The notes below the pieces were generated by a model, which searched no databases, was not told where the DNA came from, and worked only from the letters and a program-made list of their open reading frames with translations. Position numbers and translations under genes: made by a program. Of a DNA stretch of 27,261 nt, positions 11,758 through 27,180 are shown in pieces. This stretch comes from Deltaproteobacteria bacterium. Lineage in GTDB: Bacteria; Desulfobacterota; Anaeroferrophillalia; Anaeroferrophillales; Tharpellaceae. The DNA lies in assembly GCA_013153415.1 (NCBI GenBank), contig JAADEO010000106.1, positions 1 through 27,261 on the forward strand, in the 5' to 3' direction. Within the stretch, counting starts at the first letter, position 1; every line of letters begins with the position of its first letter.

Positions 11758-12594
11758 TCAGAACAGTTCCGCCCTGAGATATTCATTGACCTCTTCCAGG
11801 CTTTCAATAATCAGATCTCGTTTATGAGGAAGTTCCCTGGGACTCAGTTCCAGGGTGACGGCCCCCTCGTAATCACGTTGTTTGAGCATGTAGAGAAAAC
11901 GGGTCAGGGGCAGGATGCCGCGGCCCGGAAAGAGGTGTTCACGATGGTGTCCATAGTCGCTGAAATGGATATTTTTGACCCTGCCGCTGGCCATCAGGCG
12001 CTGGAATTCACCGAGAAAGTTGGGGTTGTGCGAACCAATGTGAGTGGTGTCGAAGGTCATGAAAAGATTGTGCTTTTCAATGAACTTCAGCATGTCTTCC
12101 GATTTCCTCAGGATGTTGGGATTGAAACGGAAACGGCGTCCGACGTAAGGCATGTTCTCGATGGTGACGATAACCTGGCTTTGTTCCACCAGTTGTTGAA
12201 AATCTTCCACCCGGCGGAACCAGCGGAAGAATCTGATTTCCGGAGGAAACCACAGGGGGGGATGGAAGTTTACCAGGGGAATGCCGAAATCCCGGGCCAG
12301 AGCTACACATCGGACCAGGGCCCGGCCCCCGTGTCCCCAGCCTCGCAGCTTGAAGAACGGGGCATGGATTGAAAGTATCGGACAGATTTTAAGCAGCTTT
12401 TCGATTATCCGATGAGGGTCGCCGTCTTCGAAAACCGTGTTGATGATCAGTTCGACCCCGTCAAAGCCACTGTCTGCGGCAATGCTGAAAATTTCCGAAA
12501 GCTTGAAAGTGTAAAGGGTGCCGGCGGAGAGCACGACGGCCCGGCTGGGAGCGGTTATCGGCGGGGCTGGTTGTCGATTTGGTGGCTGTGACAT
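11758..12594 (-). CDS. Sugar phosphate isomerase/epimerase family TIM-barrel protein (xylose isomerase-like/AP endonuclease 2)
   Basis: GFDGVEL, SIHAP, VNFHPP, IENMP, FDTTH, NIHFSD, HLFPGRG and LELS metal-ligand pattern. Confidence 0.88.
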   Translation of the reverse strand: MSQPPNRQPAPPITAPSRAVVLSAGTLYTFKLSEIFSIAADSGFDGVELIINTVFEDGDPHRIIEKLLKICPILSIHAPFFKLRGWGHGGRALVRCVALARDFGIPLVNFHPPLWFPPEIRFFRWFRRVEDFQQLVEQSQVIVTIENMPYVGRRFRFNPNILRKSEDMLKFIEKHNLFMTFDTTHIGSHNPNFLGEFQRLMASGRVKNIHFSDYGHHREHLFPGRGILPLTRFLYMLKQRDYEGAVTLELSPRELPHKRDLIIESLEEVNEYLRAELF

Positions 12595-12830
12595 CGGTTC
12601 GTTGGTCTATGCCGGATTCGGGTTTGGGCTCAAGCAGTCGTCTTAATAGCAAGTGTGGCGCAGAAATAAAACCAAAATCTGTCGACTGCGTATTCCCAGG
12701 GTATTTCATGCGGATGTAACGATCCTAACTGCTTGGCTGCTCAAAGCTTCGTCGGTGTGGGCGGAAGCACTGCCCAACTTCGTAATAACTGCCGGGACCT
12801 GCCGAACGACGCTCCTGGAAGCATGTTTCT

Positions 12831-13766
12831 ATGACCAAGGTTATCACCACAATCATTCCTATTTTCATGCTTATCGGTCTCGGAGCCGGAGTGCGGCGCT
12901 TGGGCTTTATCGAAGATGAATTTGTTCGGGCCGCGAATCGGCTGGTATTCTTTCTGGCGATCCCCGCGCTGGTTTTCCGGGCTTTGAGTCGAGCCTCCTC
13001 CTTGCATTCCGAATTCGATTCCGGTTCGGTGTTCATGATGGTTCTGGCGGTTCTGATCGTCGGGGGAATCGCGGTTTTCTGCAACTGGAGGCGGGGCGGA
13101 AAAGAGAGAGCTTTAGCGGGAACTTTCGCCCAGGCCTCGATTCATGGCAATCTCGGTTATATCGGCCTGGCTGTTTCTTTCTATTACCTGGATGAGAGCG
13201 GTTTCGCCCGGACCAGCATGCTGGTCGGTTTCCTGATGATCCTTCAGAACCTGTTGGGAGTGATCTTTCTGCAGGTCTATTGTGGCGGGAGTGAAAGAAA
13301 AGGTTGTGGTTTTCGGGATCTTTTTTCCCGGGTTCTGCTCAACCCCGTGATCCTGGCCGCGATCGGGGGGATCATCTTCAATCTCAGCCGTCTGCCGATG
13401 CCCGAGATCGGTGACCGGTTTCTAATGATTTTGAGTGGGATGGCTCTGCCGATGGGATTGTTGCTGATTGGCAGCAGTATTACTCCCGCACTCCTGCGGC
13501 GATGGCTGCCGCAAGCCTTCCAGATCGCTTTTCTCAAGCTCTTCCTGCTGCCGGCGGTGGCCGTCGCCCTTTTCCGCTGGGGCGGAATCGAGTCGGCCAA
13601 CCTGGTCCCGGTAATCATCCTCCTGGCGGCCCCGACCGCAACCCTGACCTACGTCATGGCCCGGGAGATGGGCGGTCACGTCGATCTGGCGGTCGCCTCG
13701 GTTTCCCTGACAACCATGCTCTCAGCCTTCAGCTATGCTCTCTGGCTGGGATGGCTGACCTCTTGA
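12831..13766 (+). CDS. AEC (auxin efflux carrier) family transporter, malate/malonate permease-like
   Basis: About 10 TM segments, with NRLVFFLAIPAL, GNLGYIGLAV, NPVILA, KLFLLP and AAPTA..TYVMA motifs. Confidence 0.92.
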   Translation: MTKVITTIIPIFMLIGLGAGVRRLGFIEDEFVRAANRLVFFLAIPALVFRALSRASSLHSEFDSGSVFMMVLAVLIVGGIAVFCNWRRGGKERALAGTFAQASIHGNLGYIGLAVSFYYLDESGFARTSMLVGFLMILQNLLGVIFLQVYCGGSERKGCGFRDLFSRVLLNPVILAAIGGIIFNLSRLPMPEIGDRFLMILSGMALPMGLLLIGSSITPALLRRWLPQAFQIAFLKLFLLPAVAVALFRWGGIESANLVPVIILLAAPTATLTYVMAREMGGHVDLAVASVSLTTMLSAFSYALWLGWLTS

Positions 13767-13785
13767 TGAATTATCAGGGTCTGCT

Positions 13786-14616
13786 TTAAGGAAAAAAACC
13801 TCTGATCCGGCTTGTCAGCGGCCCGGGTCGACCGTTGCCGATGGCATGGCCGTCGACCGTGGTTACCGGCAGCAGGTCCATGGTTGAACTGGTGATGAAG
13901 GCTTCATCGGCTTCCCGCAGCTCCTCCAGCGTGCATTTCCGTTCGCAAACCTCTATTTTCCGGGCTGACGCCTGTTTTATGATGAAGCCCCGGGTGATGC
14001 CGGCCAGGATGTGATGGTCGGCCGGAGGGGTGAACAGAGTGTCGTTTTTGACAAAGAAGATGTTAGCAGCGGTGCACTCTCTGATAGTGTCGTCAGCGCA
14101 GACGAACAGGGCTTCCCGGCAACCCTTCTCCACGGCCTGTTGCTTCATCATGACGTTGGGCAGCAGGGCGATGCTTTTGATGTCGCAGCGAGCCCAGCGG
14201 ATCTCCGGGACCGTAATTATTCCGATGCCTTCCTGCCCAAGTTCGGGGGGGTATTCAGGACGGGGGCGGAATGTCAGCAGCAGGTTCGGTTCCAGATCGC
14301 CAGGGTAATCGTGGCGGCGGGGAGCCGTTCCTCGGGTAACCTGGAGATAGACCATGGTTTCGGCAAAACCGGCTTTCGCGATGCCGGTGGCGATTAGCTT
14401 TTCGAGTTGGGAAAGGGGAGCCGGCAGTCGCAGGTTGATGCCGGCGGCGCTGTGCTCCAGCCGTGCAAGGTGCTCTGGCTGCAGAAACGGTCTGCCCTCC
14501 CGGGTGACAATTACTTCATAAATGCCGTCGGCGAAAAGATAACCGCGGTCATTGACCGGTACCCGGGCCTCGGCCAGGGGTATGAACGAATTTTCCAGGT
14601 AAGCTAATTCCGGCAT
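13786..14616 (-). CDS. dat: D-amino-acid aminotransferase (PLP fold type IV)
   Basis: DRGYLFADGIYEV, HLARL, YLQVTRG..PRRH, CDIKSIALL (PLP Lys), ECTAANIF, ILAGITR and EAFITSS. The RxH motif favours DAT over the branched-chain IlvE. Confidence 0.85.
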   Translation of the reverse strand: MPELAYLENSFIPLAEARVPVNDRGYLFADGIYEVIVTREGRPFLQPEHLARLEHSAAGINLRLPAPLSQLEKLIATGIAKAGFAETMVYLQVTRGTAPRRHDYPGDLEPNLLLTFRPRPEYPPELGQEGIGIITVPEIRWARCDIKSIALLPNVMMKQQAVEKGCREALFVCADDTIRECTAANIFFVKNDTLFTPPADHHILAGITRGFIIKQASARKIEVCERKCTLEELREADEAFITSSTMDLLPVTTVDGHAIGNGRPGPLTSRIRGFFP

Positions 14617-15233
14617 CAGTTCTTTCCTCCATTTTGGCGACCGGTCGGCAGGTTGCTGGTGATAAAGCCACTGATGTCATCCGATTCCAGCCGGTCGAGT
14701 TGGGCCCTGATCTTTGCCAGCGGCCAGTCCCACCAGGCGATCTCGAGCAAGTTCTCGATCTCTGCGGGAGAGAACCGGAAACCGAGGCTGCGGGCCGGGT
14801 TGCCCGCGACTATTTCATAATCGCCGACATCTTTGCTGACTACGGCCCCAGCGGCGACGACGGCGCCAGAACCGATCCGGACCCCGGAAAGGATCAGGGC
14901 GTTGCGCCCGATCCAGACCTCATGGCCGATGATGATGTCTCCCTTGCCGACAGGGTGGGCCGGATTTTCAGGAAAATCGGGTAAAAGCCGGCCGAATGGG
15001 TAGGTACTGATCCAGTCGCTGCGGTGGTTGCCGTCGACCAGCAGTTGGACTCCATCGGCGATCGAACAGAATTTGCCGATTTCGACCCGGTACTTTTTCG
15101 ACCAGCGGTGAATCTCGGGTCGTCCGTAGGTGTAGGAGCCGATGGAGATGTTCTCTTTTTGGATCAGATCGGCTGTAAAAGGAGAAGCTGCCCGGGATTT
15201 CCGGCCGCCGAACCATTTTTTCAACAATCCCAT
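14616..15233 (-). CDS. CatB/Vat-related hexapeptide-repeat O-acetyltransferase (xenobiotic acyltransferase family)
   Basis: IGSYTYG, IGKFCSIA, GNHRSDWISTYPF (catalytic His), VWIG..ILSGVRIGSGAVVAAGAVV, GNPAR and IAWWDWP. ATG at 15233; the stop overlaps the dat start (TGATG). Confidence 0.9.
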   Translation of the reverse strand: MGLLKKWFGGRKSRAASPFTADLIQKENISIGSYTYGRPEIHRWSKKYRVEIGKFCSIADGVQLLVDGNHRSDWISTYPFGRLLPDFPENPAHPVGKGDIIIGHEVWIGRNALILSGVRIGSGAVVAAGAVVSKDVGDYEIVAGNPARSLGFRFSPAEIENLLEIAWWDWPLAKIRAQLDRLESDDISGFITSNLPTGRQNGGKN

Positions 15234-15263
15234 ATGCCTCAATGCCGGGGGCGGGTTTCTGAA

Positions 15264-16871
15264 TCAGGGGACAAAGATATTGCCCCGGTTCAAAAGCAGG
15301 TCGGGGTCGACGGCGGCCTTGCAGTTTTTCAGCTGGCCGATCGCGTTCTCATCGTAAAGTACCAGAAAATCCTTGCGTTTACGTTTGCCGGTACCGTGTT
15401 CACCGGAGTAGACGCCACCCAGTTCCACCGCCTTGGCAATAATCTGGTCGTAAAGGCGAGCGGCGCTTTCCAGGGTTTCCCGGCGCGGCAGCAGGGTGAA
15501 ATGCAGGTGGCAGTCGCCCAGGTGGCCGAAAGAGAGGTAGTCGATTTTCTCCTGTTGCAGCCGGGTATGGATGAAATCGAGGAATTCGGCGAAAGCGGCC
15601 GGTGGTACCAGAGCATCGGTCATGATCGTATAGGTCCGGTATCGTTGAATGATCTCTAACGCATTGGCTGGCATCGAGTGCCGGGCTTCCATGAAAAGCC
15701 GCCGTTTGGGTGGGGTGTCGAGCAGGATCACGGCCTCGGCTTCGATATCGCATCCGGCTTCGAGAATCCGGTTGAACCAGAGTTCGGTTTGTGTTTTGAG
15801 TTCGGCTGCCGTGGTCGGGATCTGGAGATAGATGGCGACCTGATTGTCTTTGAAAAAGAGTCGTTCCCGGTGATCCATGTAGTTGCGGCTGTTGACGCCG
15901 AAATACTCGAAGGCGCTGAGGGAACTGAGATTGCCGGACAGCACCCGGTCCAGGTATTGGTAGAAAGCCAGTGCCCGGTTTTCATCCGGCAGAGAGAAGA
16001 AGAGATCGAGATAGGTTTCGGGACAGGTGGCCAGTTTCAGGGTGCAGCCGGTGACCAGGCCGAAAATTCCCTCACTGCCGATGAACATGTCGATCAGGTC
16101 GATGCGGCCGTCGGGTGATGAGTAGGGACCGCTGGCGTTCTTGATCGCCGGCCGGGGATAGGTGGGAACCGGCCAGACGGTTTCCCGACCGTTATCGATC
16201 AGGATAAAACGTCCGTTTTCCGAGATATGCCGGCCGCGCCGGGTACTGATCCTGGTGCCATCGGGCAGCAGGACATCGAGAGCCTCGACCCATTCCCGGG
16301 TAGCACCGATTTCGCCGGGGATGAAACCGGAAGCGTTGCAGGCGATGGTGCCGCCGACCCAGGCATCGCCCCGGCTGGTGGGATCGACCGGGTAATAGAG
16401 GCGGTTTCCGGTCTCCTTGAGCACCTGCTCCCGCAGGTCTTCGAGAATAATATTGACCGGAGCCGTAACCTCGCGGCCGTCCACGTCGATTCTGATCGCC
16501 GGTTCCCTGAAAGAGGCGGTCGACAGGACAATTCCCCCTTCGGCGGTGGCGCTGCCGGTCAGGTTGGAGCGTCCCCCGGAAAGGGTGACGGGGATTTTCG
16601 CGGCTCGTGCGGCCCTGAGCACTGCCGCCGCTTCTCTTTCATCTTCCGGGCGGGCCAGGGCCTCGGCCCGGGCCGGCAGGTTGGAACTGTCGGCAGCGTA
16701 ACCGGAAACAATATCGGGATCGAGGGTCAGGGCGACGCCGAAGTTCTGATGCAGAAAAGCGGCGATCTCCGGCAGATTCTCAATTCCCTGTCTTTGACCG
16801 CAGAATTCATCGATAAATTCGTACTCCCGGGGGCTCAGAACCTTTTCCACGGTAATGCTGGCGCAACTCAT
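15264..16871 (-). CDS. FAD-binding oxidoreductase, GlcD/D-2-hydroxyacid (D-lactate) dehydrogenase type
   Basis: VTLSGGRSNLTG, VDPTS..AWVGGTIACNASG, FIGSEGIFG, GHLGDCHLH and SGEHGTG. ATG at 16871 follows GAGGAG. Confidence 0.9.
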   Translation of the reverse strand: MSCASITVEKVLSPREYEFIDEFCGQRQGIENLPEIAAFLHQNFGVALTLDPDIVSGYAADSSNLPARAEALARPEDEREAAAVLRAARAAKIPVTLSGGRSNLTGSATAEGGIVLSTASFREPAIRIDVDGREVTAPVNIILEDLREQVLKETGNRLYYPVDPTSRGDAWVGGTIACNASGFIPGEIGATREWVEALDVLLPDGTRISTRRGRHISENGRFILIDNGRETVWPVPTYPRPAIKNASGPYSSPDGRIDLIDMFIGSEGIFGLVTGCTLKLATCPETYLDLFFSLPDENRALAFYQYLDRVLSGNLSSLSAFEYFGVNSRNYMDHRERLFFKDNQVAIYLQIPTTAAELKTQTELWFNRILEAGCDIEAEAVILLDTPPKRRLFMEARHSMPANALEIIQRYRTYTIMTDALVPPAAFAEFLDFIHTRLQQEKIDYLSFGHLGDCHLHFTLLPRRETLESAARLYDQIIAKAVELGGVYSGEHGTGKRKRKDFLVLYDENAIGQLKNCKAAVDPDLLLNRGNIFVP

Positions 16872-16913
16872 GTTCTCTCCTCTCATCTAATAGCCGGAGG
16901 TTGGGGTACCGGA

Positions 16914-18185
16914 TCAGAGAGTCAAAATCAGCAATGGTCCGTCCGGGACCACGGCCCAGCGGGCTTGAGGTCCGTATTTGTGCAGCAGTTCGGATACCGC
17001 ATCTTCCACCGAGGTGATCGGTTTCAGGTGATAACGGCTGATCTCTTCCGGGCTCAGGCCGTCGCTGTAGAGCCAGACCGGGTGCTTGACGACCACCTGG
17101 TAGGTCTCTTGGGCGCACCACTGGTCGGCAATGAAGAATTCCCGTTTCATGAGCCGGTCCAAAAAATTTTCCGGGGTGTCGATCATCTCCAGGATCTTGA
17201 CGTATTCGGGGCTGCCGGCCCCTTCGCTGCACTGGCTGGCAATGATGATCTCTCCCCCCTCTCTGACTACCGGGGCGGCCCCGGTAATGCCTTTGACGGT
17301 CTGGTAGAGATTGCAGTCCAGGGGGGCGCCGGAGTTGCTGGTGACGATGAAATCCAAAGGTTCGTCAAGGGTACGCATGCAGTGGGGAGCCAGGAAACGG
17401 CAGCCTTCCAGGTGGGCCTGGACCGGATCCCCGGCGAAAACCCGGGTGATTCGCTTGCTGGTATCGAGAGTGACGTTGACAATGAAGTCGGCGCCGGCTT
17501 TTTCCATGACCTTGAGACCGGCTTCATGAAAAGGGTTGCCGGCGAGCTTGCCGTAGACCGTGCCGGGGTCGGCGATCATCTCCGGTCCGTGCATGTATTC
17601 GAGGGTTTCCAGGGATGATATGCCGGGGAGGATCGATTTGCGGCCCCCGGAAAAACCGGCCCACATGTGGGGCTCGATAAACCCGGTCAGGATCTTTAAC
17701 TCGGCATTCAGGTAGTGGCGGTTGACCTCGGCCTTGACTCCCGGGGCGATTTCATAGACCGGGACCATATCTTCGCGGTTTTTGGAGTAGTGGTTGATGA
17801 TCCGGTAGCTGGCCGCGATTTCGGGGCCGACCAGTTCTTCAAGCTCGTTTCCCAGGTTGGGACGGTGGATGCCGGTGGCAATCAGGATGGTGATCGCTTC
17901 CCGCCGGATACCGGCGTTTTCGATCTCCCGCAGAATGGGAGGCAGAATGACCGAGTTGGGGACCGGTCTGGTGATATCGCTGATGACGATGCAGGCGTTG
18001 TGGCGCTGGCCGGCGAGCTGGGCCAAGGCCGGCGCCGCGATCGGTTTTTGCAAAGCCTCTGCCACCGCGACTTCGGGTTGGTCCAGAGGTTCAGTCTCCT
18101 GGGGTCGGAGAATCCCCTGGAAACCCGGGGTTTCGGGGAGTTCAAGTGAAAGTCCTTGACGACCGTAGCTCAGTGTAACCCGCAT
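16914..18185 (-). CDS. larA: Nickel-pincer (NPN)-dependent LarA-family 2-hydroxyacid racemase/epimerase
   Basis: DITRP, ATGIHR, GFIEPHMWAGFSGGRKSILPG, MHG, LYQTVKG and DQW motifs cover the Asp/Arg, both catalytic His, both cofactor-linked Lys and the Ni-His equivalents. RBS GGAGG. Confidence 0.92.
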   Translation of the reverse strand: MRVTLSYGRQGLSLELPETPGFQGILRPQETEPLDQPEVAVAEALQKPIAAPALAQLAGQRHNACIVISDITRPVPNSVILPPILREIENAGIRREAITILIATGIHRPNLGNELEELVGPEIAASYRIINHYSKNREDMVPVYEIAPGVKAEVNRHYLNAELKILTGFIEPHMWAGFSGGRKSILPGISSLETLEYMHGPEMIADPGTVYGKLAGNPFHEAGLKVMEKAGADFIVNVTLDTSKRITRVFAGDPVQAHLEGCRFLAPHCMRTLDEPLDFIVTSNSGAPLDCNLYQTVKGITGAAPVVREGGEIIIASQCSEGAGSPEYVKILEMIDTPENFLDRLMKREFFIADQWCAQETYQVVVKHPVWLYSDGLSPEEISRYHLKPITSVEDAVSELLHKYGPQARWAVVPDGPLLILTL

Positions 18186-18372
18186 GGCGTTCCTCCCTGT
18201 TGCAGATCATTTGACGATTCAGCGCGATCCTTTCTGAAGTGCCGGTTCCTCAGTGGCGCTGAGTGGTTGCCAGATCGTTTGTCGTCCTGTCATCGGCTTT
18301 TATAGCATGCAATTGATCAAAGTAAATAGAATATTTTCCGGGTGGGGTAGGCGGTCTGGCGGATAAAACTGC

Positions 18373-18401
18373 TTGCTCCCGGCCGTCGGCGTGGTTATAA
18401 T
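18373..18401 (+). promoter_or_regulatory. sigma70 promoter upstream of rfbC
   Basis: TTGCTC-N17-TATAAT, 58 bp upstream of the start codon. Confidence 0.65.
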
Positions 18402-18459
18402 GCGATCGTTTGCGGGTTCTGATAGTTATGCGGCAATTTTGAAAAAAGGGTGGGGGTAA

Positions 18460-19011
18460 ATGGAATTCCAAACAACCGGGATCCCGGGTGTATGCCTGGT
18501 GAAACCCGATATCTACCGGGACCAGCGGGGGTTTTTCCAGGAAGTTTTCAACCGGCAGAGGTATGAAGCCGGGGGGATGGCTTTCGATTTCGTTCAGGAC
18601 AACATGTCGCGTTCCCAGCGGGGCACGGTCCGCGGGTTGCATTACCAGCTCAGGCAACCCCAGGGAAAGCTGGTTTTCGTTCTGCGGGGGGAGATTTTCG
18701 ATGTCGCGGTCGATATCCGTCGACAGTCACCGACCTTCCGGCAGTGGTTCGGCTGTCGTCTCAACGATGAAAACCGTCACCAGCTCTTTGTACCTCCTGG
18801 ATTTGCCCACGGTTTCATGGTTTTGAGCGAGGTGGCCGAAGTCTACTACAAATGTACTGATTTTTATCGTCCGGATGATGAATACGGACTTTTATGGAAT
18901 GATCCCGAAATCGCCATCGGGTGGCCGGATTGCGGCGAGGTCCTGCTTTCACCCAAGGACCTCGCCCAACCTACCTTGCGTACCGTTGATCCGGAGCATC
19001 TCCCGCTTTGA
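18460..19011 (+). CDS. rfbC: dTDP-4-dehydrorhamnose 3,5-epimerase (RmlC)
   Basis: DQRGFFQE, FVQDNMSRS, VRGLHYQ, QGKLV, DVAVDIR, VPPGFAHGF and YKCTDFY. Confidence 0.97.
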   Translation: MEFQTTGIPGVCLVKPDIYRDQRGFFQEVFNRQRYEAGGMAFDFVQDNMSRSQRGTVRGLHYQLRQPQGKLVFVLRGEIFDVAVDIRRQSPTFRQWFGCRLNDENRHQLFVPPGFAHGFMVLSEVAEVYYKCTDFYRPDDEYGLLWNDPEIAIGWPDCGEVLLSPKDLAQPTLRTVDPEHLPL

Positions 19012-20397
19012 TCAGTCCATGACCGTTTCGTAGCCCGCCGCCTTCCAGGTGCTCATGCCGCCGATAACGCTGTAGACATTTTTATAGCCCCGTTGCTTGA
19101 GAATCGAGGCGGCGATGTTGGAACGATAGCCGGACATGCAGATGACGCTGATGTGTTGTTCGAGATCCCGGCTGAAGCCCTGGTTGATGAGTTCCGGCAG
19201 CGGCAAATGCTCGGCGCCGGCGATATGGCCGCTTTCCCATTCCTGCTGGTTGCGGACATCAAGAACCAGATGGTTGCTGTACTTGTTGATAACGTGGTGG
19301 AGCGAATGTACCGTTATCTGGGGGAGGAAACCGGTCTCTTCGGCCTCCAGGATCCAGCTGCTCAGACCGATGATGCAGCCTTTGATCTGGTCATAGCCGA
19401 CCCGGCGGAACATGGTGGCGGCGCTGTCGATCTCCTGACGGTTGTTGCCCAACAGGAGAAGTTCGCTTTCCGGTTCGACGACGTTGCCGATCCAGGTGGC
19501 CGAATTGGGGGCCAGGCCGATATTGAGACTGCCGGGGATATGGGCTCCACCGAAAGCGGTAGCTTCCCGCAGGTCGATCAGCTTGCGGTCCCGGTTTTCA
19601 TTGAGAAACTGTTTGCAGGTGGTCGGTTTGTACTCGCTGATCTGCGGCAGTTCCTTGAGCAGTCTGGCACCCCGGATATTGGTGTTGATGATATGGGTGA
19701 AGTTGATCGGCCGATGCGGGGTGGTTTTGGTCAGTTCGGCCCGGAAGGCGTCGAAATCGAGCTTGAGAAAGGGATTGGTTTTGCGTTCGAAACCCAGGGT
19801 TGAAGAGGGTTTGGCGCTGATTCCGGCACCGCAGAGGGAACCGGCTCCGTGGGCCGGATAGACCTCGACGTAATCGGGGAAATCGGCCAGTTTGACATTG
19901 AGACTGTGGTAGGCGTTGTGGATCTGTTCTTCCAGCAGTTCGCCGCCGGCAAGATCGGGCCGGCCGATGCTGCCGACGAACAACAGGTCGCCGGTCAGAA
20001 GCATTTCCACGAAGTCACCCCGGGAGAGATCGGTAATCGCCAGCGAAATCGAATTGGGAGTATGTCCCGGAGTGGCAAGCACCCTGATCCGGGCATTGCC
20101 GATAACCATCTCGTCGCCGTCATTGAGCGGCATGTACTTGTACTCGACCGGTGAACCGGCTCCGAGGTGAATCGGAGCTCCGGTCTGGTAACTGAGTTCA
20201 GCGGCCCCGGAGACATGGTCGGCGTGGACGTGGGTTTCGATGATGCCGGTAATCTTCATCTTGTTGATGCGGGCGATCTGCAGATACTCGTCGATATCCC
20301 GCTTGGGATCGACCACGATGGCCCGGCCGTCCAGCGGGCAGCCGATCATGTATGAGAGACAACCGAGACCTTCCACTTTGAACTGTTGAAAAAACAT
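19012..20397 (-). CDS. MBL-fold persulfide dioxygenase + pseudo-rhodanese + rhodanese (CstB-like)
   Basis: ETHVHADH, TPGHT, TGDLLF and PAHGAGSLCG. The first rhodanese domain has no active Cys; the second has ICMSGYRS. RBS GGAGG. Confidence 0.9.
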   Translation of the reverse strand: MFFQQFKVEGLGCLSYMIGCPLDGRAIVVDPKRDIDEYLQIARINKMKITGIIETHVHADHVSGAAELSYQTGAPIHLGAGSPVEYKYMPLNDGDEMVIGNARIRVLATPGHTPNSISLAITDLSRGDFVEMLLTGDLLFVGSIGRPDLAGGELLEEQIHNAYHSLNVKLADFPDYVEVYPAHGAGSLCGAGISAKPSSTLGFERKTNPFLKLDFDAFRAELTKTTPHRPINFTHIINTNIRGARLLKELPQISEYKPTTCKQFLNENRDRKLIDLREATAFGGAHIPGSLNIGLAPNSATWIGNVVEPESELLLLGNNRQEIDSAATMFRRVGYDQIKGCIIGLSSWILEAEETGFLPQITVHSLHHVINKYSNHLVLDVRNQQEWESGHIAGAEHLPLPELINQGFSRDLEQHISVICMSGYRSNIAASILKQRGYKNVYSVIGGMSTWKAAGYETVMD

Positions 20398-21573: not shown

Positions 21574-21647
21574 AGGTTTACTTATATGTGACCATCGAAA
21601 AAACCTATTTGAGAAAGCCCGTTTGGGTTGCGGGACTCATCCCCGCA

Positions 21648-22133
21648 TTAGGCGTTTTTGAAAACCTTGGCCGCGAGATCGATATCTTCGGGGCAGAAGA
21701 CGAAAAGGGTTTTGCCCTCAGCCGGGGGAACCGAGCCGTAGACGTAATGGATATTGATACCGGCGTCACCGATCTTGCGGGCCGTGGCGGCCAGGGTGCC
21801 GGGTTGGTTGTCGAGTTCGATCGCCATCACCGGGGTGATATCGTAGAGGTAATCGGCCTCGGTCAGCAGGTCGAGGCTCTTGTCGGTGTTGTCGGTCAGC
21901 AGGCGGACCAGGGCGAACTCCTCCGAATCCTTCTGAATCATGCCGTAGCTGGCGGCGGTAGCGTGCCGTTTGAGGGTTTTGCCGCGGGCCTTGAACAGCT
22001 CTTCGACATAGCTGGTGGCATCCTGAATGGTGATGGCGTCGATGTTGATCTGATGGCTGGCGAAGAGTTCCGTCAGACGGGCGAGTTCGCCGGGTACGTT
22101 TTTCAAAAAGAGGGTGATTTCAGTCCGGACCAT
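21648..22133 (-). CDS. Tandem ACT-domain protein (COG4747-like) with an insertion in ACT1
   Basis: EITLFLKNVPGELARL..INIDAI and MAIELDNQPGTLAATARKIGDAGINIHYVY. ATG at 22133 follows CAGGAG. Confidence 0.85.
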   Translation of the reverse strand: MVRTEITLFLKNVPGELARLTELFASHQINIDAITIQDATSYVEELFKARGKTLKRHATAASYGMIQKDSEEFALVRLLTDNTDKSLDLLTEADYLYDITPVMAIELDNQPGTLAATARKIGDAGINIHYVYGSVPPAEGKTLFVFCPEDIDLAAKVFKNA

Positions 22134-22275
22134 GTCGTGATCTCCTGATTGTGATTGGTTGTTTCGGTTTTGGCGAACCTTATTATGATCCACCCATGCT
22201 TGTCAAGAAGTTGATGGCTTCGTAAGAAATCGAAAGTTACGCGAAAACGGGTTGTATACGCAGGTAAATCGTCAT

Positions 22276-22322
22276 AAAAAAAGCCGGCCGCCCGGAAAAT
22301 AACTCCGTGCGGCCGGCTTTTT
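22276..22322 (-). terminator. Rho-independent terminator of hsp20 (likely bidirectional)
   Basis: A7-GCCGGCCGC..GCGGCCGGC-T5, 35 bp downstream of the hsp20 stop. Confidence 0.88.
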
Positions 22323-22357
22323 GGATTCTGCATGGTGGTGGTGAAACAGGTTGCCGG

Positions 22358-22819
22358 TTACTTGACTTCGATCTGAACCTTTTTCGGTTTGTTCTCCTCT
22401 TTCTTGGGCAGGATGACTTTCAATACACCCTTGTCGTAAGATGCGGAGATCTTCTCGCGATCGACGGTTACCGGCAGCTCGAAGGAACGCTGGAAACTGC
22501 CGTAGAAACGTTCCACCCGATGGTAGCTCTCTTTCTTCTCTTCCTTCTCGAGTTTGCGCTCGCCCTTGATCGTCAACATGTTGTTGTCAAGGTCGATCTG
22601 GATATCCTTCTCGTCCATTTCCGGCAGTTCCGCCTTGATGGTGATGGCCTGTTCATCTTCAAAGATGTCGACCAGCGGCCGCCAGGTGGTGGTGGCCAGG
22701 CTCTGATCATCTTTGAGCCCTAAAGTATCCTCGAAAAGAGTATTGATGCGATCCTGAATAGTCAACAGATCCTGGAACGGAGCCCAAGCCCGATTCGGTG
22801 TCCATTTTACAATAGCCAT
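22358..22819 (-). CDS. Hsp20/alpha-crystallin small heat shock protein
   Basis: WRPLVDIFED, AELPEM..DIQI, LTIKGERK, ERFYGSFQRSFELP and ASYDKGVL. RBS AAGGAGG. Confidence 0.96.
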   Translation of the reverse strand: MAIVKWTPNRAWAPFQDLLTIQDRINTLFEDTLGLKDDQSLATTTWRPLVDIFEDEQAITIKAELPEMDEKDIQIDLDNNMLTIKGERKLEKEEKKESYHRVERFYGSFQRSFELPVTVDREKISASYDKGVLKVILPKKEENKPKKVQIEVK

Positions 22820-22897
22820 AGTCTCTACCTCCTTGATTCTTAATGATATTTTCTGGCCGGCTCGGCTTTGCCGCCGACCTTTTTTGCTTTCAAACCA

Positions 22898-22926
22898 AGG
22901 ATAGGTACGGTATTTGCGGTTGTCAA
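22898..22926 (-). promoter_or_regulatory. sigma70 promoter of hsp20
   Basis: TTGACA-N17-TATCCT on the minus strand. Confidence 0.65.
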
Positions 22927-22960
22927 GGGTGGAAAAATGAAAAAATTCGGAGAAAGAGCC

Positions 22961-24154
22961 TCACTGAATTTCCAGGGCCAGCAGGGAGACATCATCGTTG
23001 CAGCCCCGGCCCGCGGTCCAGATTTCGAGCTTGTGGCAGACCTCTTCGAGACTCTCCGCCAGGGGCAGGGTCCGGGCCTGGTTGAGACACTCTTTAAGCC
23101 GTTCTACCCCGAACTGTTCATTTTGCGGGTCGGCGGCCTCGATGATGCCGTCGGAGTAGAAATAGAGACGTTCACCCGGCTGGAGTGAAAGTTCTTCCTC
23201 GTCGTAGACCTTGTCGACGTCGACCAGAAAGCCGATCGGCAGACTGCGCACCTGGAGGGATTCGGCGCTGCCGTCGGCCTTTAAATGAATCATCGGCGGA
23301 TGGCCGGCCGAGATGTAGGTAAGGAGCTTCTGCTCGATGTCGAGCTGGGCGTACTGGATGGTGAAATACTGCTCCGTGTTGCTGTCTAAAGGAAAACGCT
23401 GGTTGAGCTGGTTGGCGACCTCTTCCGGGGGCACCAGGCAGTAGCCCGGCTGGTCGGGGCACGGTCTCTTGAGCAGGTCGGACTGGCCCGGGTTGGGCGT
23501 CAGAATCCGGGAGAGGTTGACCGAGAGCAGGGCCGCCGGCACACCGTGGCCGCTGACATCGAGCAGGTAGAGGCCGATGTGTTTCTCATCCAGGTTGAAG
23601 ATGTTGAGGGTATCGCCGGCCAATTCGTCGCAGGGGTCGTATTTCCAGGCGAAAGCGACGCCTTCCGCTTCCGGCAGTTGGGTCGGGAGCAGGGACTGCT
23701 GGATGCGTGCCGCGGCTTCGAGGTCGCGGCGCATGCGCTCGTTGACTTTTTCCAGCTCCCGGTTGCGTTCGGCCAGGTCCCGTTCGAGATCGGTGATCCG
23801 GATGCCGACCTTGAGCCGGGCCATCAGTTCATCCTTGTCGAAGGGCTTGGTGATGAAATCGTCGGCCCCCGACTCCATTCCCGCCAGAATATCCTCTTTT
23901 TCGCTGCGGGCGGTCAGCAGAATCATGTAGACATAGCCGGGCCGGTCATAGGCGCGAATCCGGCGCAAAAGTTCGAGGCCGTCCATCTTCGGCATCATCC
24001 AGTCGCTGATGACCATCGGATAGTGCTCTTGCTGGAAATATTCCCAGGCCTCGGCCCCGTCTTCGGCGGTGGTCACCTCGTAACCCCATTTCTTCAGCCG
24101 GCTCTCCAGCAGCCGCCGGGAAACCCGCTCGTCTTCGGCAATCAGGATTTTCAT
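22961..24154 (-). CDS. Response regulator receiver + coiled coil + PP2C/SpoIIE phosphatase (RsbU/RsbP-like)
   Basis: AEDE, DWMMPKMDG (phospho-Asp), LLTA and KPF in the receiver. AGD, LDVSGHG, YSDGI and NDDVS in the PP2C domain. The start abuts the upstream stop (TAAATG). Confidence 0.94.
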   Translation of the reverse strand: MKILIAEDERVSRRLLESRLKKWGYEVTTAEDGAEAWEYFQQEHYPMVISDWMMPKMDGLELLRRIRAYDRPGYVYMILLTARSEKEDILAGMESGADDFITKPFDKDELMARLKVGIRITDLERDLAERNRELEKVNERMRRDLEAAARIQQSLLPTQLPEAEGVAFAWKYDPCDELAGDTLNIFNLDEKHIGLYLLDVSGHGVPAALLSVNLSRILTPNPGQSDLLKRPCPDQPGYCLVPPEEVANQLNQRFPLDSNTEQYFTIQYAQLDIEQKLLTYISAGHPPMIHLKADGSAESLQVRSLPIGFLVDVDKVYDEEELSLQPGERLYFYSDGIIEAADPQNEQFGVERLKECLNQARTLPLAESLEEVCHKLEIWTAGRGCNDDVSLLALEIQ

Positions 24155-25495
24155 TTAGAAATAATACCTTCCCATCGGTGTCAATTCGAATTCGTTGAGC
24201 GCGATATACTCTTTATCCCGCCGGTTGATGAACTTGACCGCCCGGCCCTTGAAATCGCGGCGGGCTTCGTTGAGCAAACGGTAGCCCTCGTCCCGGCAGC
24301 GCTGGCAGGCGTGGAAAGGGATCTCGATGCCCATGCAGGTACCGTTGCGGGTGGTTTTCGATATCAGGTGGCGGATGCCGGCGCAGTCGGGACAAACCAT
24401 GACCTGTTCGACCTGCTGGTCGCTGATGCCGTCGGTGTCGTAGTAGACCATTTTCGAGCGGGTGTCGTACTGGTTGGGCTTGACCTTCAGAGGCGGAGGC
24501 GAGAAGTAGTTTTTGCGGACCAGTTCACAGAGCTTCTTGATATATTCACTGATCTGCGGATCCTGGCGCAGGGCCTCGGGATCGTAGTCGGGTTCGCGCA
24601 CGGCCGAGTAGTCGAGACCAGCCATGGCCAGGACGATGCCCAGATTGACGTAGGGCAGGGCTCCCTGGATCGAGTAACCGCCCTCGAGAACGGCGATGTC
24701 GGGATTCAAGCGGTGGTTGAGTTCGGCGTAACCGGTAGCGGAGAAATTCATGTTGGTGATGGGGTCGCCGTAGTGGTTGTCCTGGCCGGCCGAGTTGATG
24801 ATGAGCTCGGGCTTGAAATCCTCAAGAATCGGTTTGACCAGATGGTCGATGACGTAGAGGAAACCTTCGTCCGAAGTGTTGGGCGGCAGAGGGATATTGA
24901 TAGTTCGGCCCCGGGCCGTGGGACCGCCGAGTTCATCGGTGAAACCGGAACCGGGATAGAGGGTGCGGCCGTCCTGGTGCAGGGAAATGAAGAGGACCTC
25001 GGGGTCGTGCCAGTAGATGTCCTGGGTGCCGTCGCCGTGGTGGCAGTCGGTATCGACGATCGCGATCCGTTTGGGACCGTAGTGCTCGCGGATGAACTCG
25101 ATCATCACGGCCTCGTTGTTGACATTGCAGAAACCCCGGTTGCCGTGGACCACCTTCATGGCGTGATGGCCGGGAGGGCGGACCAGGGCGAAGGCCCGGT
25201 CGACCTCCTTTTCCATGACCAGCCGGGCCGCCCGGATGGCGCCGCCGGCAGCGATCCGGTGCGATTCGGTGACTACGTCATCCGGCCCCGGGAAACAGAA
25301 ATGTGTTCGGTCGAAATCGGCGTTGGCGGCGATTTCGGGTTTGAATTCGCTGATATTGGGCAGATCGAAGATGCCCTCTTCACGAAGCTGGTCCTGGGTG
25401 TAGAGCAGGCGTTCCTCTCGTTCCGGGTGCGTCGGGCTGATGGCCCAGTCGTAGGCCGGGAAGAAGATCACTCCCAACTGGCGGGTTTTTTTCAT
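24155..25495 (-). CDS. Histone deacetylase family (AcuC/HDAH-like) Zn amidohydrolase with a C-terminal CxxC..CxxC extension
   Basis: RPPGHHA, GFC, DTDCHHGDGTQ, SLHQ, YPGSG, NIPLP, SAGQD and LEGGY. C-terminal CPDC..CQRC. ATG at 25495 overlaps the upstream stop (ATGA). Confidence 0.92.
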   Translation of the reverse strand: MKKTRQLGVIFFPAYDWAISPTHPEREERLLYTQDQLREEGIFDLPNISEFKPEIAANADFDRTHFCFPGPDDVVTESHRIAAGGAIRAARLVMEKEVDRAFALVRPPGHHAMKVVHGNRGFCNVNNEAVMIEFIREHYGPKRIAIVDTDCHHGDGTQDIYWHDPEVLFISLHQDGRTLYPGSGFTDELGGPTARGRTINIPLPPNTSDEGFLYVIDHLVKPILEDFKPELIINSAGQDNHYGDPITNMNFSATGYAELNHRLNPDIAVLEGGYSIQGALPYVNLGIVLAMAGLDYSAVREPDYDPEALRQDPQISEYIKKLCELVRKNYFSPPPLKVKPNQYDTRSKMVYYDTDGISDQQVEQVMVCPDCAGIRHLISKTTRNGTCMGIEIPFHACQRCRDEGYRLLNEARRDFKGRAVKFINRRDKEYIALNEFELTPMGRYYF

Positions 25496-27180
25496 GATAT
25501 CGCGGCTCCCTGCTGGTCGAGCTTTTCGAGTCCGGGCCGAATCTGGCAACTGACCCGGATGGTTTTGCTGCCGAAGGCGTAGTCATCCACCATGTTGAAG
25601 GCTTCAGCTTCAATAATTCCGACATCTTCGGCGCTGATCCCGGGGTGACCGCTGGCGGCCAGAAATTTCGCCAATTCCCCGGCCCCGTCCCGACGGGCCT
25701 GACTGAGTGAATAGGTCGAGTCGATGCGTCTCTCGATGCCGAGGTTGGGAATTATCATGCTGCCTCGGCCGGTGTCGGCGAACAGTTCGCTCTCCATGGT
25801 GGTCCGGGTCAGAGCGGCGCCGACGGCATTGGCGACAGCGAAATGGTCAGGCACCTCGGTCGGCAGGGCGAAAACTTCACCGAGACGGGAGGCCAGGATC
25901 GCGGCCGGCCCTCCCATGATGTAGAGTTTCTCCGGTCTGATCTCGCGGGCATGGAGAATCTCGGCCACCGTGTAGGCCGGTTTCTGGTTGATCTCTTCGA
26001 GCAGGTCGAGGCTTTCACGTCGTATCCGGTCGGCGGCGAGCCTGAGGATGTTTTCCGCTAATTCGGTTTGCGGCACTGCGGCTTGGCCGGCCAGGTGGCT
26101 GAGACCGGCGTGGGACTTTTCCGGGTTTCCGACAGCTGAGATCCCGGCCACGTTGGCGGCGTCTATCAGGGTCGGAGCCGGTCCTCCGAGGGCCAGCGGC
26201 GGTCCGAGACGTTCCGGGCCGATCGCGATTTCACCCCGGGAATCGAGTCTGACCCGGGAGTCACCGCCGATGCCGATCGAGCGGGTACGGATGGCCCGGA
26301 TCAGGGTCGGTCTTCCCCCGAAAGCGACCCCGTCTCTTTCCAGCAGCGGGGCTCCGTCGGCGAAGATGGCAATATCAGTGGTGGTGCCGCCGATATCGAG
26401 GATCACGGCATCTTCACGGATTGAACAGAGGGCGGTGATCCCCATGATACTGGCAGCTGGTCCCGAAAGAATGGTCTGGACCGGGTGGGTGCGGGAGTGT
26501 TCCAGATCGATGGTGCCGCCGTCGGCCTTGAGAATGTTGAGCGGGGCTTCGAGGTCATGGCGGGCGATACTTTCGCTGACGGCGTCGGCGAAAGCGTTGT
26601 AACGGCGCCAGACCGCGGAATTGTAGTAGGCCGTGGCCAGGCGCCGGGGAAAGTTGAGGCGGCCCGAAAGCCGGTGCCCGAGGGTGGTGAAATCGCTCTG
26701 GTCCGCGGCCATTTCGGCCAGGGTCAATTCGATATGTGGATTGCGGGTAGAGAACTTGCTGACTGCGGCAAATACCCGGACGCCACTTTCCCGGCAGCGG
26801 GCGAGAGCCTCGTGAACGGCTTTTTCATCGAGGGGCTGACGCAGGTTGCCGCGATGGTCGATGGAGCCGGAAAAGATGTAGACATGGTCGCCGAGATCAC
26901 GGTTGAAACAGGATGCGGCCAGCCCGGGGCCGGAAACCGCCAGGACCCCGACCTCTTCCAGTTTTTTTTCAACGATGGCGTTGGTGGTCAGCGTGGTGCT
27001 CAGGTTGATTTTGCGGATGGCGGTGGCCGCTCCGGAAGGCAGGATCTTTTCGAGGACGGCATCGAGCGAGGCCACCAGATTGTCGTGGACGGTTTCGATC
27101 TTGGCCGTGGCCCGGATGCCGTCATCATCGATGATGACGGCATCGGTATGGGTTCCGCCGATGTCAATTCCCAGCAGCAT
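25492..27180 (-). CDS. Hydantoinase/oxoprolinase family protein (HyuA/ATP-binding subunit type)
   Basis: GIDIGGTHTD, STTLTTNA, KADGG, TILSGPAAS, LDIGGTTTDI, IGIGGDS, PTLIDA and ANAVGAA. RBS AGGA. Confidence 0.92.
   Translation of the reverse strand: MLLGIDIGGTHTDAVIIDDDGIRATAKIETVHDNLVASLDAVLEKILPSGAATAIRKINLSTTLTTNAIVEKKLEEVGVLAVSGPGLAASCFNRDLGDHVYIFSGSIDHRGNLRQPLDEKAVHEALARCRESGVRVFAAVSKFSTRNPHIELTLAEMAADQSDFTTLGHRLSGRLNFPRRLATAYYNSAVWRRYNAFADAVSESIARHDLEAPLNILKADGGTIDLEHSRTHPVQTILSGPAASIMGITALCSIREDAVILDIGGTTTDIAIFADGAPLLERDGVAFGGRPTLIRAIRTRSIGIGGDSRVRLDSRGEIAIGPERLGPPLALGGPAPTLIDAANVAGISAVGNPEKSHAGLSHLAGQAAVPQTELAENILRLAADRIRRESLDLLEEINQKPAYTVAEILHAREIRPEKLYIMGGPAAILASRLGEVFALPTEVPDHFAVANAVGAALTRTTMESELFADTGRGSMIIPNLGIERRIDSTYSLSQARRDGAGELAKFLAASGHPGISAEDVGIIEAEAFNMVDDYAFGSKTIRVSCQIRPGLEKLDQQGAAIS

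Follow-up and report, generated by a model that had tools for sequence, protein, structure and literature searches.

A conserved LarA-dehydrogenase gene pair beside a probably separate acetyltransferase-transaminase unit in one family of an uncultured Tharpella/Anaeroferrophillus-related order

Organization of the locus

In the window, which here means the whole 27,261-nucleotide stretch of DNA that was analysed, four consecutive open reading frames on the minus strand encode a LarA-family racemase, an FAD-linked dehydrogenase (FAD535), a hexapeptide acetyltransferase (AcT), and a D-amino-acid transaminase (DAT), as listed in Table 1. The gaps between them are 42, 30, and -1 bp, and an AEC-family transporter gene on the opposite strand faces DAT at a distance of 19 bp, an arrangement of co-oriented genes convergent on a transporter that agrees with an earlier sequence-only reading of this DNA.

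Table 1. Features of the locus and its flanks, with positions in the window.
Feature	Coordinates	Strand	Details
LarA-family nickel-pincer (NPN) 2-hydroxyacid racemase	16914..18185	-	423 aa; Lar_N + LarA_C
FAD535, VAO/PCMH-type FAD-linked D-2-hydroxyacid dehydrogenase	15264..16871	-	535 aa; FAD_binding_4 + FAD-oxidase_C
AcT, XAT-class (CatB/Vat-like) hexapeptide acetyltransferase	14616..15233	-	205 aa; Hexapep
DAT, canonical D-amino-acid transaminase (fold type IV)	13786..14616	-	276 aa; Aminotran_4
AEC-family (Mem_trans) transporter	12831..13766	+	Mem_trans
TIM, xylose-isomerase-like TIM-barrel protein	11758..12594	-	AP_endonuc_2
Divergent larA/rmlC spacer, presumably with the promoter of the larA unit	18186..18459		274 bp

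Inspection of the open reading frames places GGGAGG upstream of the larA start and GAGG upstream of the ATG at 15233, which sets the length of AcT and its gap to FAD535. The FAD535 frame opens at 16886, and the ATG backed by a ribosome-binding site, with GAGGAGAG upstream, lies at 16871, which gives the 535-residue product and the 42-bp gap. A single base is common to the ATG of DAT and the TGA of AcT (TGATG). Orthologs of every one of the four genes, 59-80% identical, occur in many MAGs, indicating that all of them are real. A sigma-70 consensus scan of positions 12500-18700, including the larA/rmlC spacer, returned no site, and the 12 terminator-like matches, none of them in an intergenic gap, are not clearly above the 7.5 +/- 2.6 obtained by chance; the scan is uninformative on co-transcription. 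Since the gap between FAD535 and AcT is only 30 bp and the minus strand carries no terminator-like site there, a single transcript over all four genes is plausible. As the sequence-only reading had also stated, larB, larC, larE, ETF, and GlcF-like genes are absent from the scanned ORFs of the window, as are GlcE/GlcF partners of FAD535, the scanned set leaving out four larger ORFs at 21588-27180.

Identity of the LarA-type racemase

LarA exceeds the cut-offs of both of its domain profiles, Lar_N (202 bits) and LarA_C (102 bits). Its top NCBIfam model is still the lactate racemase Ni_dep_LarA (NF033504, equivalog), with a score of 431.5 bits that does not reach the cut-off of 460, and the malate racemase models (365 and 308) and LarAH10 (270) score lower. 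The nearest solved relative is the enzyme of Isosphaera pallida (LarAIp; 388 bits to 9eid), in which Lys183 tethers the NPN cofactor, His199 is a Ni ligand, His107 and His173 are catalytic, and Arg73, Tyr294, Gln295, and Lys298 bind the carboxylate and hydroxyl groups (PMC11851776). In the alignment to 9eid, R73, H107, H173, K183, H199, Y294, Q295, K298, and W356 (LarAIp numbering) are all retained, and the NPN, Ni, catalytic, and substrate-binding residues are conserved in 35 orthologs as well. The window enzyme therefore shares its carboxylate, hydroxyl, NPN, and Ni ligands and both catalytic histidines with LarAIp (LarAH2/Sar, PDB 9eid/9eia; PMC11851776, PMC7583248), which bears out the earlier statement that the NPN and catalytic residues are complete; the PHMWAG reading likewise recurs, as EPH-M-W-AGFSGG. 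In contrast, three of the four residues lining the pocket for the C-alpha substituent differ from LarAIp (L174M, M175W, Q357C), with M/W/C at positions 174/175/357 and a clade pocket of M174/W175/W356/C357, and the M-W pair replaces the F-F of L. plantarum LarA. The most likely assignment from these comparisons is a racemase of lactate or short-chain aliphatic 2-hydroxyacids, a provisional one given a score below the NCBI lactate-racemase cut-off and a pocket unlike that of both characterised lactate-active enzymes.

Cofactor supply was followed through the source genome, a MAG of 78% completeness, in which no other Lar_N protein exceeds the cut-off. The presence of larB, larC, and larE elsewhere in the genome, on which an active LarA had been made to depend, holds for larC (189 bits) and larE (292 bits), both above cut-offs, whereas larB was not found in this incomplete MAG, though it occurs in 23 of the 27 genomes of the order, one from the same genus included. 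The MAGs compared here and below are incomplete, so that absences are soft, and the relatives are not independent samples.

Identity of the FAD535 dehydrogenase

FAD535 carries an FAD_binding_4 domain (80.9 bits) and an FAD-oxidase_C domain (94.5 bits), and reaches neither the GlcD model TIGR00387 (154 bits; cut-off 568) nor PRK11230 (82 bits; cut-off 897). It is about 25% identical to LctD (7qh2_C), GlcD, LDHD, and D2HGDH, with whose metal and catalytic motifs its GHLGDCHLH and GEHGTG segments align. The residues H450, H457, E491, H492, and R397, invariant among 12 members of the family, match the GH-GDGN-H and GEHG motifs of 7qh2_C, 9qgz, 8jdc, and 6lpn, and by alignment a His-x6-His...Glu metal site, an adjacent catalytic His, and a conserved Arg are present; the metal, catalytic, and substrate-binding (Arg) roles of these residues are presumably those seen in the structures of LDHD and D2HGDH. 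Judged by these scores and alignments, FAD535 represents a distinct, uncharacterised subfamily of VAO/PCMH D-2-hydroxyacid dehydrogenases.

LarA and FAD535 as a two-gene module

LarA and FAD535 are adjacent in every close relative with enough flanking sequence (L007-L016, L019, L020, L039, L060, and L061), and an order-wide survey places them side by side on one contig wherever the assembly allows. The surroundings of the pair take at least three different forms across genomes, including the window type with RmlC upstream, loci with FecCD/binding-protein genes downstream (L010 and L012), a locus with menaquinone and poly(A) polymerase genes (L016), and one within an Etf-LctD-GlcD-GlcF cluster (L019). 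Among about 77 distant FAD535 homologs from metagenomes (46-59% identity), 18 have a LarA-superfamily gene directly downstream, from another subgroup with an F-M/W-E pocket, so that the FAD535 family recurs beside two different LarA subgroups. LarA-FAD535 is a conserved two-gene module.

The closest known counterpart is the lct cluster of Acetobacterium woodii and Anaerobutyricum soehngenii, in which lctB/C encode the ETF, lctD a D-specific NAD-independent lactate dehydrogenase (D-iLDH), and lctF the lactate racemase, which makes L-lactate usable by the D-specific enzyme (PMC8914356). Both arrangements set a LarA-type racemase beside a GlcD/VAO-type D-specific NAD-independent dehydrogenase, which allows either isomer of lactate to be oxidised to pyruvate. 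The gene order EtfB-EtfA-LctD-LarA is also found in MAGs of Syntrophales and Spirochaetes, where the racemase belongs to the same M174/W175/W356/C357 clade as that of the window; because the clade occurs in such lactate clusters, the pair likely functions in racemisation that supplies a D-specific dehydrogenase. In a published survey, the contexts of LarA group 1 contain COG0277 in 35% and ETF in 33% of cases (PMC7583248 Table S1). The window unit departs from the lct clusters in having no ETF genes, permease, or regulator, and FAD535, besides its low identity to LctD, is extended at its N-terminus by about 45 aa and carries an insertion of some 35 aa.

According to the proposed mechanism, the NPN-dependent LarA would interconvert L- and D-lactate, and possibly other short aliphatic 2-hydroxyacids; FAD535, acting as a D-specific, metal-dependent enzyme, would oxidise the D-isomer to pyruvate or another 2-oxoacid; and the electrons would pass to an acceptor not encoded at the locus. 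This logic would be that of the racemase and D-iLDH of lactate-utilisation clusters.

An unlikely though serious alternative is that the pair serves the catabolism of a non-lactate 2-hydroxyacid, such as 2-hydroxybutyrate, glycerate, 2-hydroxyisovalerate, or another short aliphatic compound, with DAT and AcT as unrelated neighbours. LarAIp handles 14 substrates, of which lactate and 2-hydroxybutyrate are the best (PMC11851776), and the altered pocket described above would accommodate such a reading, as would the failure to find a lactate permease in the 78%-complete source genome. The L019 locus has a separate LctD-Etf set as well as a GlcD-GlcF pair next to FAD535, a hint that FAD535 is not simply redundant with D-lactate dehydrogenase, and the neighbours of FAD535 homologs are varied, comprising DASS and TRAP carboxylate transporters, acyl-CoA dehydrogenase, and class I aminotransferase genes. 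Against it stand the identical LarA pocket in classical EtfBA-LctD-LarA clusters, the top rank of the lactate racemase model, the JGI family name of FAD535 (D-lactate dehydrogenase), and the DJ-1/PfpI gene that adjoins some FAD535 homologs. The DJ-1/PfpI family includes glyoxalase III, which produces D-lactate. In a milder form of novelty, FAD535 may be a new family of LarA-coupled D-2-hydroxyacid dehydrogenases with its own substrate and electron acceptor.

The D-amino-acid transaminase and its distribution

DAT matches Aminotran_4 at 177 bits and narrowly misses both NCBIfam cut-offs for its class (PRK06680, 288.1 against 320; TIGR01121, 252.8 against 277.45), while lying far above the BCAT and ADCL models; solved DAATs are matched at 174 bits. 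The motifs DRGYLFA, GIYEVIV, VYLQVT, APRRH, and CDIKS are present in its sequence, and it aligns with the solved enzyme 4pbc. The canonical DAAT motif comprises F26, Y31, [VA]33, [KRPT]35, x-Y88-x-Q, and R98-x-H100 (PMC10003956), and DAT fits it, catalytic Lys145 included, with a sole departure at position 35. It thus resembles the Bacillus sp. YM-1 enzyme bsDAAT (PMC10003956) in fold type IV, the Y31/R98/H100 carboxylate trap, F26, V33, Y88-x-Q, and the catalytic Lys, and differs from it in having Val instead of K/R/P/T at position 35, in its near-miss scores, and in its putative role in D-glutamate supply in a lineage poor in MurI.

This role is suggested by distribution. DAT orthologs occur in 24 of the 27 genomes, some of which have no LarA-FAD535, and MurI (TIGR00067) in 5 of 27. 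The three genomes without DAT, which are 93-97% complete, all possess MurI, and the 22 without MurI all possess DAT; in G025, LarA-FAD535-AcT is kept, DAT is lost, and MurI is present. From this distribution and its complementarity to MurI, we infer that DAT is most likely a housekeeping supplier of D-glutamate for peptidoglycan. The enzyme would convert D-alanine, made by Alr, and 2-oxoglutarate to D-glutamate in a lineage mostly without glutamate racemase, and Alr is present in the source genome. A non-MurI gene of the Asp/Glu-racemase superfamily is also present there, and could in principle be an alternative supplier of D-amino acids.

The acetyltransferase and the flanking genes

AcT belongs to the Hexapep family and matches the XAT-class structures 3eev and 1xat at 134-139 bits, with scores far under the equivalog cut-offs for Vat (144.5 bits; cut-off 300) and CatB (141.6 bits; cut-off 350). 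Like PaXAT (1xat), CatB (3eev), and VatD (1khr), it has the hexapeptide repeats of a left-handed beta-helix, the GNHR-DW-ST-PF loop, and the catalytic His, His70 aligning with His79 of PaXAT; in contrast to these, it is chromosomal and tied to the DAT locus. It is found in 11 of the 27 genomes, all of family f1, and in every case at the DAT locus, either at -1 to 45 bp from DAT or separated from it by a 255-aa gene that overlaps DAT by 4 bp. In G023 and G027, AcT-DAT-TIM form a group by themselves behind a TPR gene. AcT travels with DAT, not with LarA, and would be an accessory partner of the DAT locus. The 255-aa gene of the relatives has no Pfam or NCBIfam match and has no counterpart in the window, where a pseudogene remnant between AcT and DAT is excluded by their one-base overlap.

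This contiguity, together with the retained catalytic His, raises the prospect of a small separate pathway made up of AcT and DAT, joined in relatives by the 255-aa protein. It might, for example, make a D-amino acid or amino compound and acetylate it for use in the envelope or in detoxification, in which case DAT would not be purely housekeeping. Such a pathway is improbable, since AcT is far less widespread than DAT and persists in G025 after DAT loss, and since MurI complementarity already accounts for the conservation of DAT. Enzymes of the XAT class are O-acetyltransferases of xenobiotics, and we know of none with an amino-acid substrate. A DapH-type reading, with AcT as tetrahydrodipicolinate N-acetyltransferase beside an aminotransferase, was rejected on a DapD_Ac score of 55 bits (cut-off 232) against about 140 for the XAT models. 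Sugar modification by rmlC, acetyltransferase, and aminotransferase was rejected as well: DAT belongs to fold type IV, has the complete carboxylate trap of DAATs, and does not resemble DegT, and rmlC points the other way and is independently conserved.

Within family f1, no neighbour of DAT is more constant than TIM (co-directional in L055, L056, L058, L146, and L147). The AEC transporter was considered as a dedicated uptake system of the LarA unit and discarded, since its ortholog occurs in 22 of the 27 genomes, including ones without LarA-FAD535, and adjoins TIM in G013, a genome that lacks all four genes. AEC is part of the local backbone and is not tied to LarA.

Linkage of the four genes and the proposed pathway

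The sequence-only reading had proposed that the four genes form one dedicated route from L-2-hydroxyacid through D-2-hydroxyacid and 2-oxoacid to D-amino acid, with AcT modifying a product or intermediate. The tight, co-oriented spacing is in its favour, as is the same gene order, mostly with the extra 255-aa gene, in G014, G017, G018, G020, G026, G028, and G030, and the steps make chemical sense, pyruvate being among the substrates of DAT. The racemase and flavoprotein steps are indeed upheld by the conserved adjacency of their genes and by the Etf-LctD-LarA clusters, but the extension to DAT and AcT finds no such backing. All four genes are adjacent in eight genomes of family f1 only, and elsewhere they are unlinked or singly absent, so that neighbourhood conservation, proposed as a check, holds across relatives for LarA-FAD535 and within a single family for DAT and AcT. 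The whole f1 neighbourhood is syntenic (MBL-rhodanese, RmlC ... AEC, TIM), and the four-gene linkage may therefore be mere inherited order. Even in f1, DAT stands apart from LarA-FAD535 in at least three genomes (G021, G022, and G023), as it does in all five genomes of the sister family f2 that have both; DAT occurs without the pair in G007 and G010 (100% complete), and the pair without DAT in G025. Neither DAT nor AcT lies at the roughly 77 distant FAD535 loci or near LarA loci of 58-66% identity, and COG0115 never appears in the published table of LarA contexts (PMC7583248 Table S1). With Alr present and MurI absent, we further infer that the physiologically needed direction of DAT produces pyruvate, where the route would consume it.

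A dedicated four-gene route thus appears very unlikely; on these comparisons the idea is not formally refuted and is left without comparative support. Equally hard to credit is a co-option confined to family f1, whereby, with all four proteins made from a single transcript, pyruvate or another 2-oxoacid from L/D-2-hydroxyacids would be channelled through DAT to a D-amino acid acetylated by AcT, which, if true, would be a route peculiar to the lineage and undescribed elsewhere. The genomic evidence points instead to two units, LarA-FAD535 and AcT-DAT, which are probably separate in function and are neighbours only in this bacterial family.

Implications

Were the four-gene pathway real, fermentation acids would be turned into D-amino acids in a new manner. 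Comparison with relatives renders this unlikely and spares a costly biochemical chase. Tight spacing in one genome is no evidence of a pathway, and the placement of LarA-FAD535 beside AcT-DAT looks like ordinary juxtaposition, a new hydroxyacid-to-D-amino-acid pathway not being supported. The LarA clade with the M-W/W-C pocket and the large, uncharacterised FAD535 subfamily are clear targets for substrate and electron-acceptor assays. Finally, judging from gene distribution, the uncultured Tharpella/Anaeroferrophillus-related order seems to depend for its D-glutamate on DAT, not MurI, which is a testable statement on the cell-wall metabolism of the order.

Organization of the Locus

The window corresponds to contig C41 in a 78%-complete metagenome-assembled genome (MAG) of 1.87 Mb. 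Close homologs of its LarA, a predicted NPN-dependent 2-hydroxyacid racemase, are present in MAGs submitted under the names Candidatus Tharpella and Ca. Anaeroferrophillacea. Both Pfam and NCBIfam confirmed the family assignment of the four genes under study, which encode LarA, a predicted 535-aa FAD-linked D-2-hydroxyacid dehydrogenase (FAD535), a hexapeptide acetyltransferase (AcT), and a D-amino-acid transaminase (DAT). Their co-orientation with gaps of 42, 30, and −1 bp was reproduced with the RBS-supported start of FAD535 and the ATG chosen for AcT, as was the convergent AEC (Mem_trans) transporter gene. Because the gap between FAD535 and AcT (15234-15263) is 30 bp and a terminator scan found no terminator-like site in it, co-transcription of the four genes in this genome is plausible. 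Upstream of LarA lie rmlC and a fused metallo-beta-lactamase-rhodanese gene, presumably persulfide-dioxygenase-like, both of which share conserved synteny with larA among close relatives.

Coordinates of features in the window, in loci of relatives (L numbers), and on contig C205 of the same genome
Feature	Sequence	Coordinates	Strand	Remarks
LarA	window	18185..16914	−	423 aa
FAD535 (FAD-linked oxidase)	window	start 16871	−	535 aa; RBS-supported start
AcT	window	ATG at 15233	−	205 aa
DAT (class IV aminotransferase)	window	14616..13786	−	276 aa
AEC/Mem_trans	window	12831..13766	+	convergent on the four genes
TIM (xylose-isomerase-like TIM-barrel gene)	window	11758-12594	−
rmlC	window	18460..19011	+	upstream of LarA, divergent; solitary
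Metallo-beta-lactamase fold + two rhodanese domains	window	19012-20397	−	461 aa; fused; beside rmlC
X255	L007	6252-6971
X255	L008	13131-13919
X255	L011	3633-4403
X255	L013	13219-13986
X255	L015	13272-14039
X255	L039	13729-14484
Group II intron maturase and reverse-transcriptase genes	L009	5129-8456		directly 3' of FAD535
Racemase-dehydrogenase cluster	L019	357-10534		Ca. Anaeroferrophillacea MAG
Racemase-superfamily ORF	C205 (L140)	719-1480	+	~254 aa; outside the window

The Predicted Racemase and Its Partner Dehydrogenase

The top NCBIfam model for LarA was lactate racemase, at 431.5 bits and thus below the cut-off of 460, with lower scores for the malate-racemase and LarAH10 models, while the nearest solved structure was the broad-spectrum LarA of Isosphaera pallida (LarAIp; 9eid, 388 bits); placement among the 25 published LarAH groups relies on these scores against HMMs and PDB entries instead of a tree. 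When aligned to 9eid, LarA keeps Arg73, His107, His173, Lys183, His199, Tyr294, Gln295, Lys298, and Trp356, which bears out the earlier statement that the NPN and catalytic residues are retained; residue roles were read from the description of LarAIp, in which Lys183 tethers NPN and His199 is a Ni ligand (PMC11851776). The pocket contains Met174/Trp175/Cys357 where LarAIp has Leu/Met/Gln, and 35 of 35 orthologs (58-80% identity) show this M-W/W-C signature with little or no variation. LarA is the sole Lar_N protein above cut-off in its genome. The search for larBCE elsewhere was answered in part, as larC and larE are present, whereas larB was not found in this 78%-complete MAG and occurs in 23 of the 27 genomes surveyed across the order.

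FAD535 shares no more than about 25% identity with LctD (7qh2_C), a glycolate oxidase, LDHD, and D2HGDH. The motifs GHLGDCHLH and GEHGTG, invariant throughout the FAD535 family, align with the metal-binding and catalytic motifs of these enzymes, including the metal ligands of LDHD and D2HGDH. The family is large and consists of 530-550-aa proteins, labeled by some sources as D-lactate dehydrogenase (cytochrome). An alignment run against metagenome contigs returned 80 loci, about 77 of them distant; in 18 of these ~77 the gene directly downstream belongs to the LarA superfamily but to another subgroup (31-38% identity, pocket F-M/W-E), and DAT or AcT lies nearby in none. Further neighbors include carboxylate transporters, acyl-CoA dehydrogenase, CoA ligase, DJ-1/PfpI, and class I aminotransferase genes. 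At ~9.6-10.4 kb on three metagenome contigs (L107-L109), an ADP-forming CoA-ligase-like gene precedes the FAD535 homolog and a DJ-1/PfpI gene comes after it. The DJ-1/PfpI family includes glyoxalase III, a producer of D-lactate, and this neighbor gives a weak hint that D-lactate may be the substrate of the FAD535 family.

Same-pocket LarA orthologs in Syntrophales and Spirochaetes MAGs occur in the order EtfB-EtfA-LctD-LarA, corresponding to the arrangement of lct clusters, where a racemase enables L-lactate use by a D-specific NAD-independent lactate dehydrogenase (PMC8914356). Published work already links LarA groups to COG0277 dehydrogenases and ETF, and its LarA context table contains no class IV aminotransferases (COG0115) (PMC7583248). 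The genome studied here contains two ETF-alpha genes outside the window; a lactate permease was not found in its 78%-complete assembly. LarA and FAD535 form a module of racemase and predicted D-2-hydroxyacid dehydrogenase that is of known functional type and most likely acts on lactate; its dehydrogenase belongs to an uncharacterized subfamily. The adjacency of the two genes and the Etf-LctD-LarA parallels thus support the first two steps of the sequence-only reading, namely racemization of an L-2-hydroxyacid and flavoprotein oxidation to a 2-oxoacid.

In locus L019, LarA and FAD535 are part of a larger cluster, LarA-EtfB-EtfA-LctD-like-FAD535-(158 aa)-GlcD-GlcF-like, which combines one racemase with three different GlcD-type dehydrogenases.

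Gene Order in Relatives

A total of 37 genomic loci around LarA homologs were fetched and every neighbor was mapped by tblastn, with gene calls from our own ORF scripts; all genomes compared are MAGs, in which absences are soft. Wherever the locus of a close relative has sufficient flank, LarA adjoins FAD535, and what follows the pair varies: AcT-X255-DAT (L007, L013, L039), X255-DAT (L008, L011, L015), AcT only (L014), unrelated FecCD transporter genes (L010, L012), unrelated menaquinone and poly(A) polymerase genes (L016), or a group II intron reverse transcriptase (L009). The intron genes of L009 probably separate LarA-FAD535 from an AcT-DAT-AEC-TIM continuation on another contig, TIM being a xylose-isomerase-like TIM-barrel gene. 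X255, a conserved gene of ~255 aa that matches nothing in Pfam or NCBIfam, separates DAT from AcT (or from FAD535) in many relatives; in L011 and L015 it overlaps DAT by 4 bp. The window lacks X255, and AcT there runs 1 bp into DAT. Of the five genomes lacking DAT at the LarA locus, four have a DAT ortholog (59-63%) elsewhere, adjoining TIM and, in two of them, accompanied by AcT.

Across the 27 genomes of the order, orthologs were found in 24 for DAT, 20 each for LarA and FAD535, 22 for AEC, 25 for TIM, and 11 for AcT, the last only in the window's own family.

Position of DAT relative to LarA-FAD535 in the order-wide survey
Arrangement	Genomes
DAT next to LarA-FAD535 (own family)	G000, G014, G017, G018, G020, G026, G028, G030
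DAT on a different, well-flanked contig (own family)	G021, G022, G023
DAT unlinked (sister family, 5/5 genomes with both)	G006, G008, G009, G011, G012
DAT without LarA-FAD535	G007, G010 (100% complete), G019, G027
LarA-FAD535-AcT without DAT	G025
Locus interrupted by intron or contig ends	G024, G015, G016, G029

DAT has yet another context in the sister family; in one of its genera, DAT and a class I aminotransferase gene have 4 bp in common. TIM lies directly beside larB, convergently, in all six sister-family genomes with both genes (G006-G011); in the window's family its neighbor is DAT or AEC, not larB.

Roles of DAT and AcT

DAT has the canonical DAAT motif (F26, Y31, V33, Y88-x-Q, R98-x-H100) and catalytic Lys, position 35 alone being off-motif. 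MurI (TIGR00067) was detected in 5 of the 27 genomes, including all three that lack DAT (G013, G025, G031; 93-97% complete), and DAT is present in 22 of 22 MurI-less genomes. Under random placement, the probability that the three DAT-less genomes all belong to the five MurI-positive ones is 10/2925 (~0.003), which is indicative only, as relatives are not independent. A wider Asp/Glu-racemase search (PF01177) added only a different, sporadic paralog. Alr is encoded in the window's genome, and formation of D-Glu from D-Ala and 2-oxoglutarate by DAT is known to take the place of MurI (PMC5458566). This distribution suggests that DAT is most likely a housekeeping source of D-Glu; in that direction it would release rather than consume pyruvate, leaving no metabolic reason for coupling to lactate oxidation.

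AcT is an XAT-class enzyme matching CatB and PaXAT at ~135-139 bits, far under the Vat and CatB cut-offs, and its His70 aligns with His79 of 1xat, the catalytic His of PaXAT. It is confined to the window's family and always occurs at the DAT locus, the order TPR-AcT-DAT-TIM is found in G023 and G027 with LarA-FAD535 not nearby, and AcT is retained in G025 after loss of DAT; AcT therefore follows the DAT locus, not LarA.

A Candidate Selenocysteine Racemase

An ORF of the Asp/Glu/hydantoin-racemase superfamily on contig C205, without a match in NCBIfam, contains an in-frame TGA at codon 196 (context LVPG-U-TILS), and in a 90%-identical copy from a sister-family genome (G011:C40) the matching codon is also TGA. 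The genome carrying the C205 ORF encodes SelB, and a hairpin begins 5 nt after the UGA, although its stability is not significant (z = −0.96). The ORF is a candidate selenocysteine racemase.

Implications for the Four-Gene Pathway

The sequence-only reading had extended the route from 2-oxoacid to D-amino acid through DAT, with AcT modifying a product or intermediate. These last two steps are not supported, given the unlinked DAT in G021-G023 and the sister family and the distant FAD535 loci devoid of DAT and AcT. Conservation of the neighborhood holds for LarA-FAD535-DAT adjacency in eight genomes of the window's family, but elsewhere DAT is unlinked from the pair or single genes are missing. 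Since co-transcription is plausible in the window's genome, a pathway co-opted from this juxtaposition within the family is conceivable, though we regard it as very improbable. Judged from gene order, two units, the LarA-FAD535 module and the AcT-DAT unit, stand side by side here as a lineage-specific juxtaposition.
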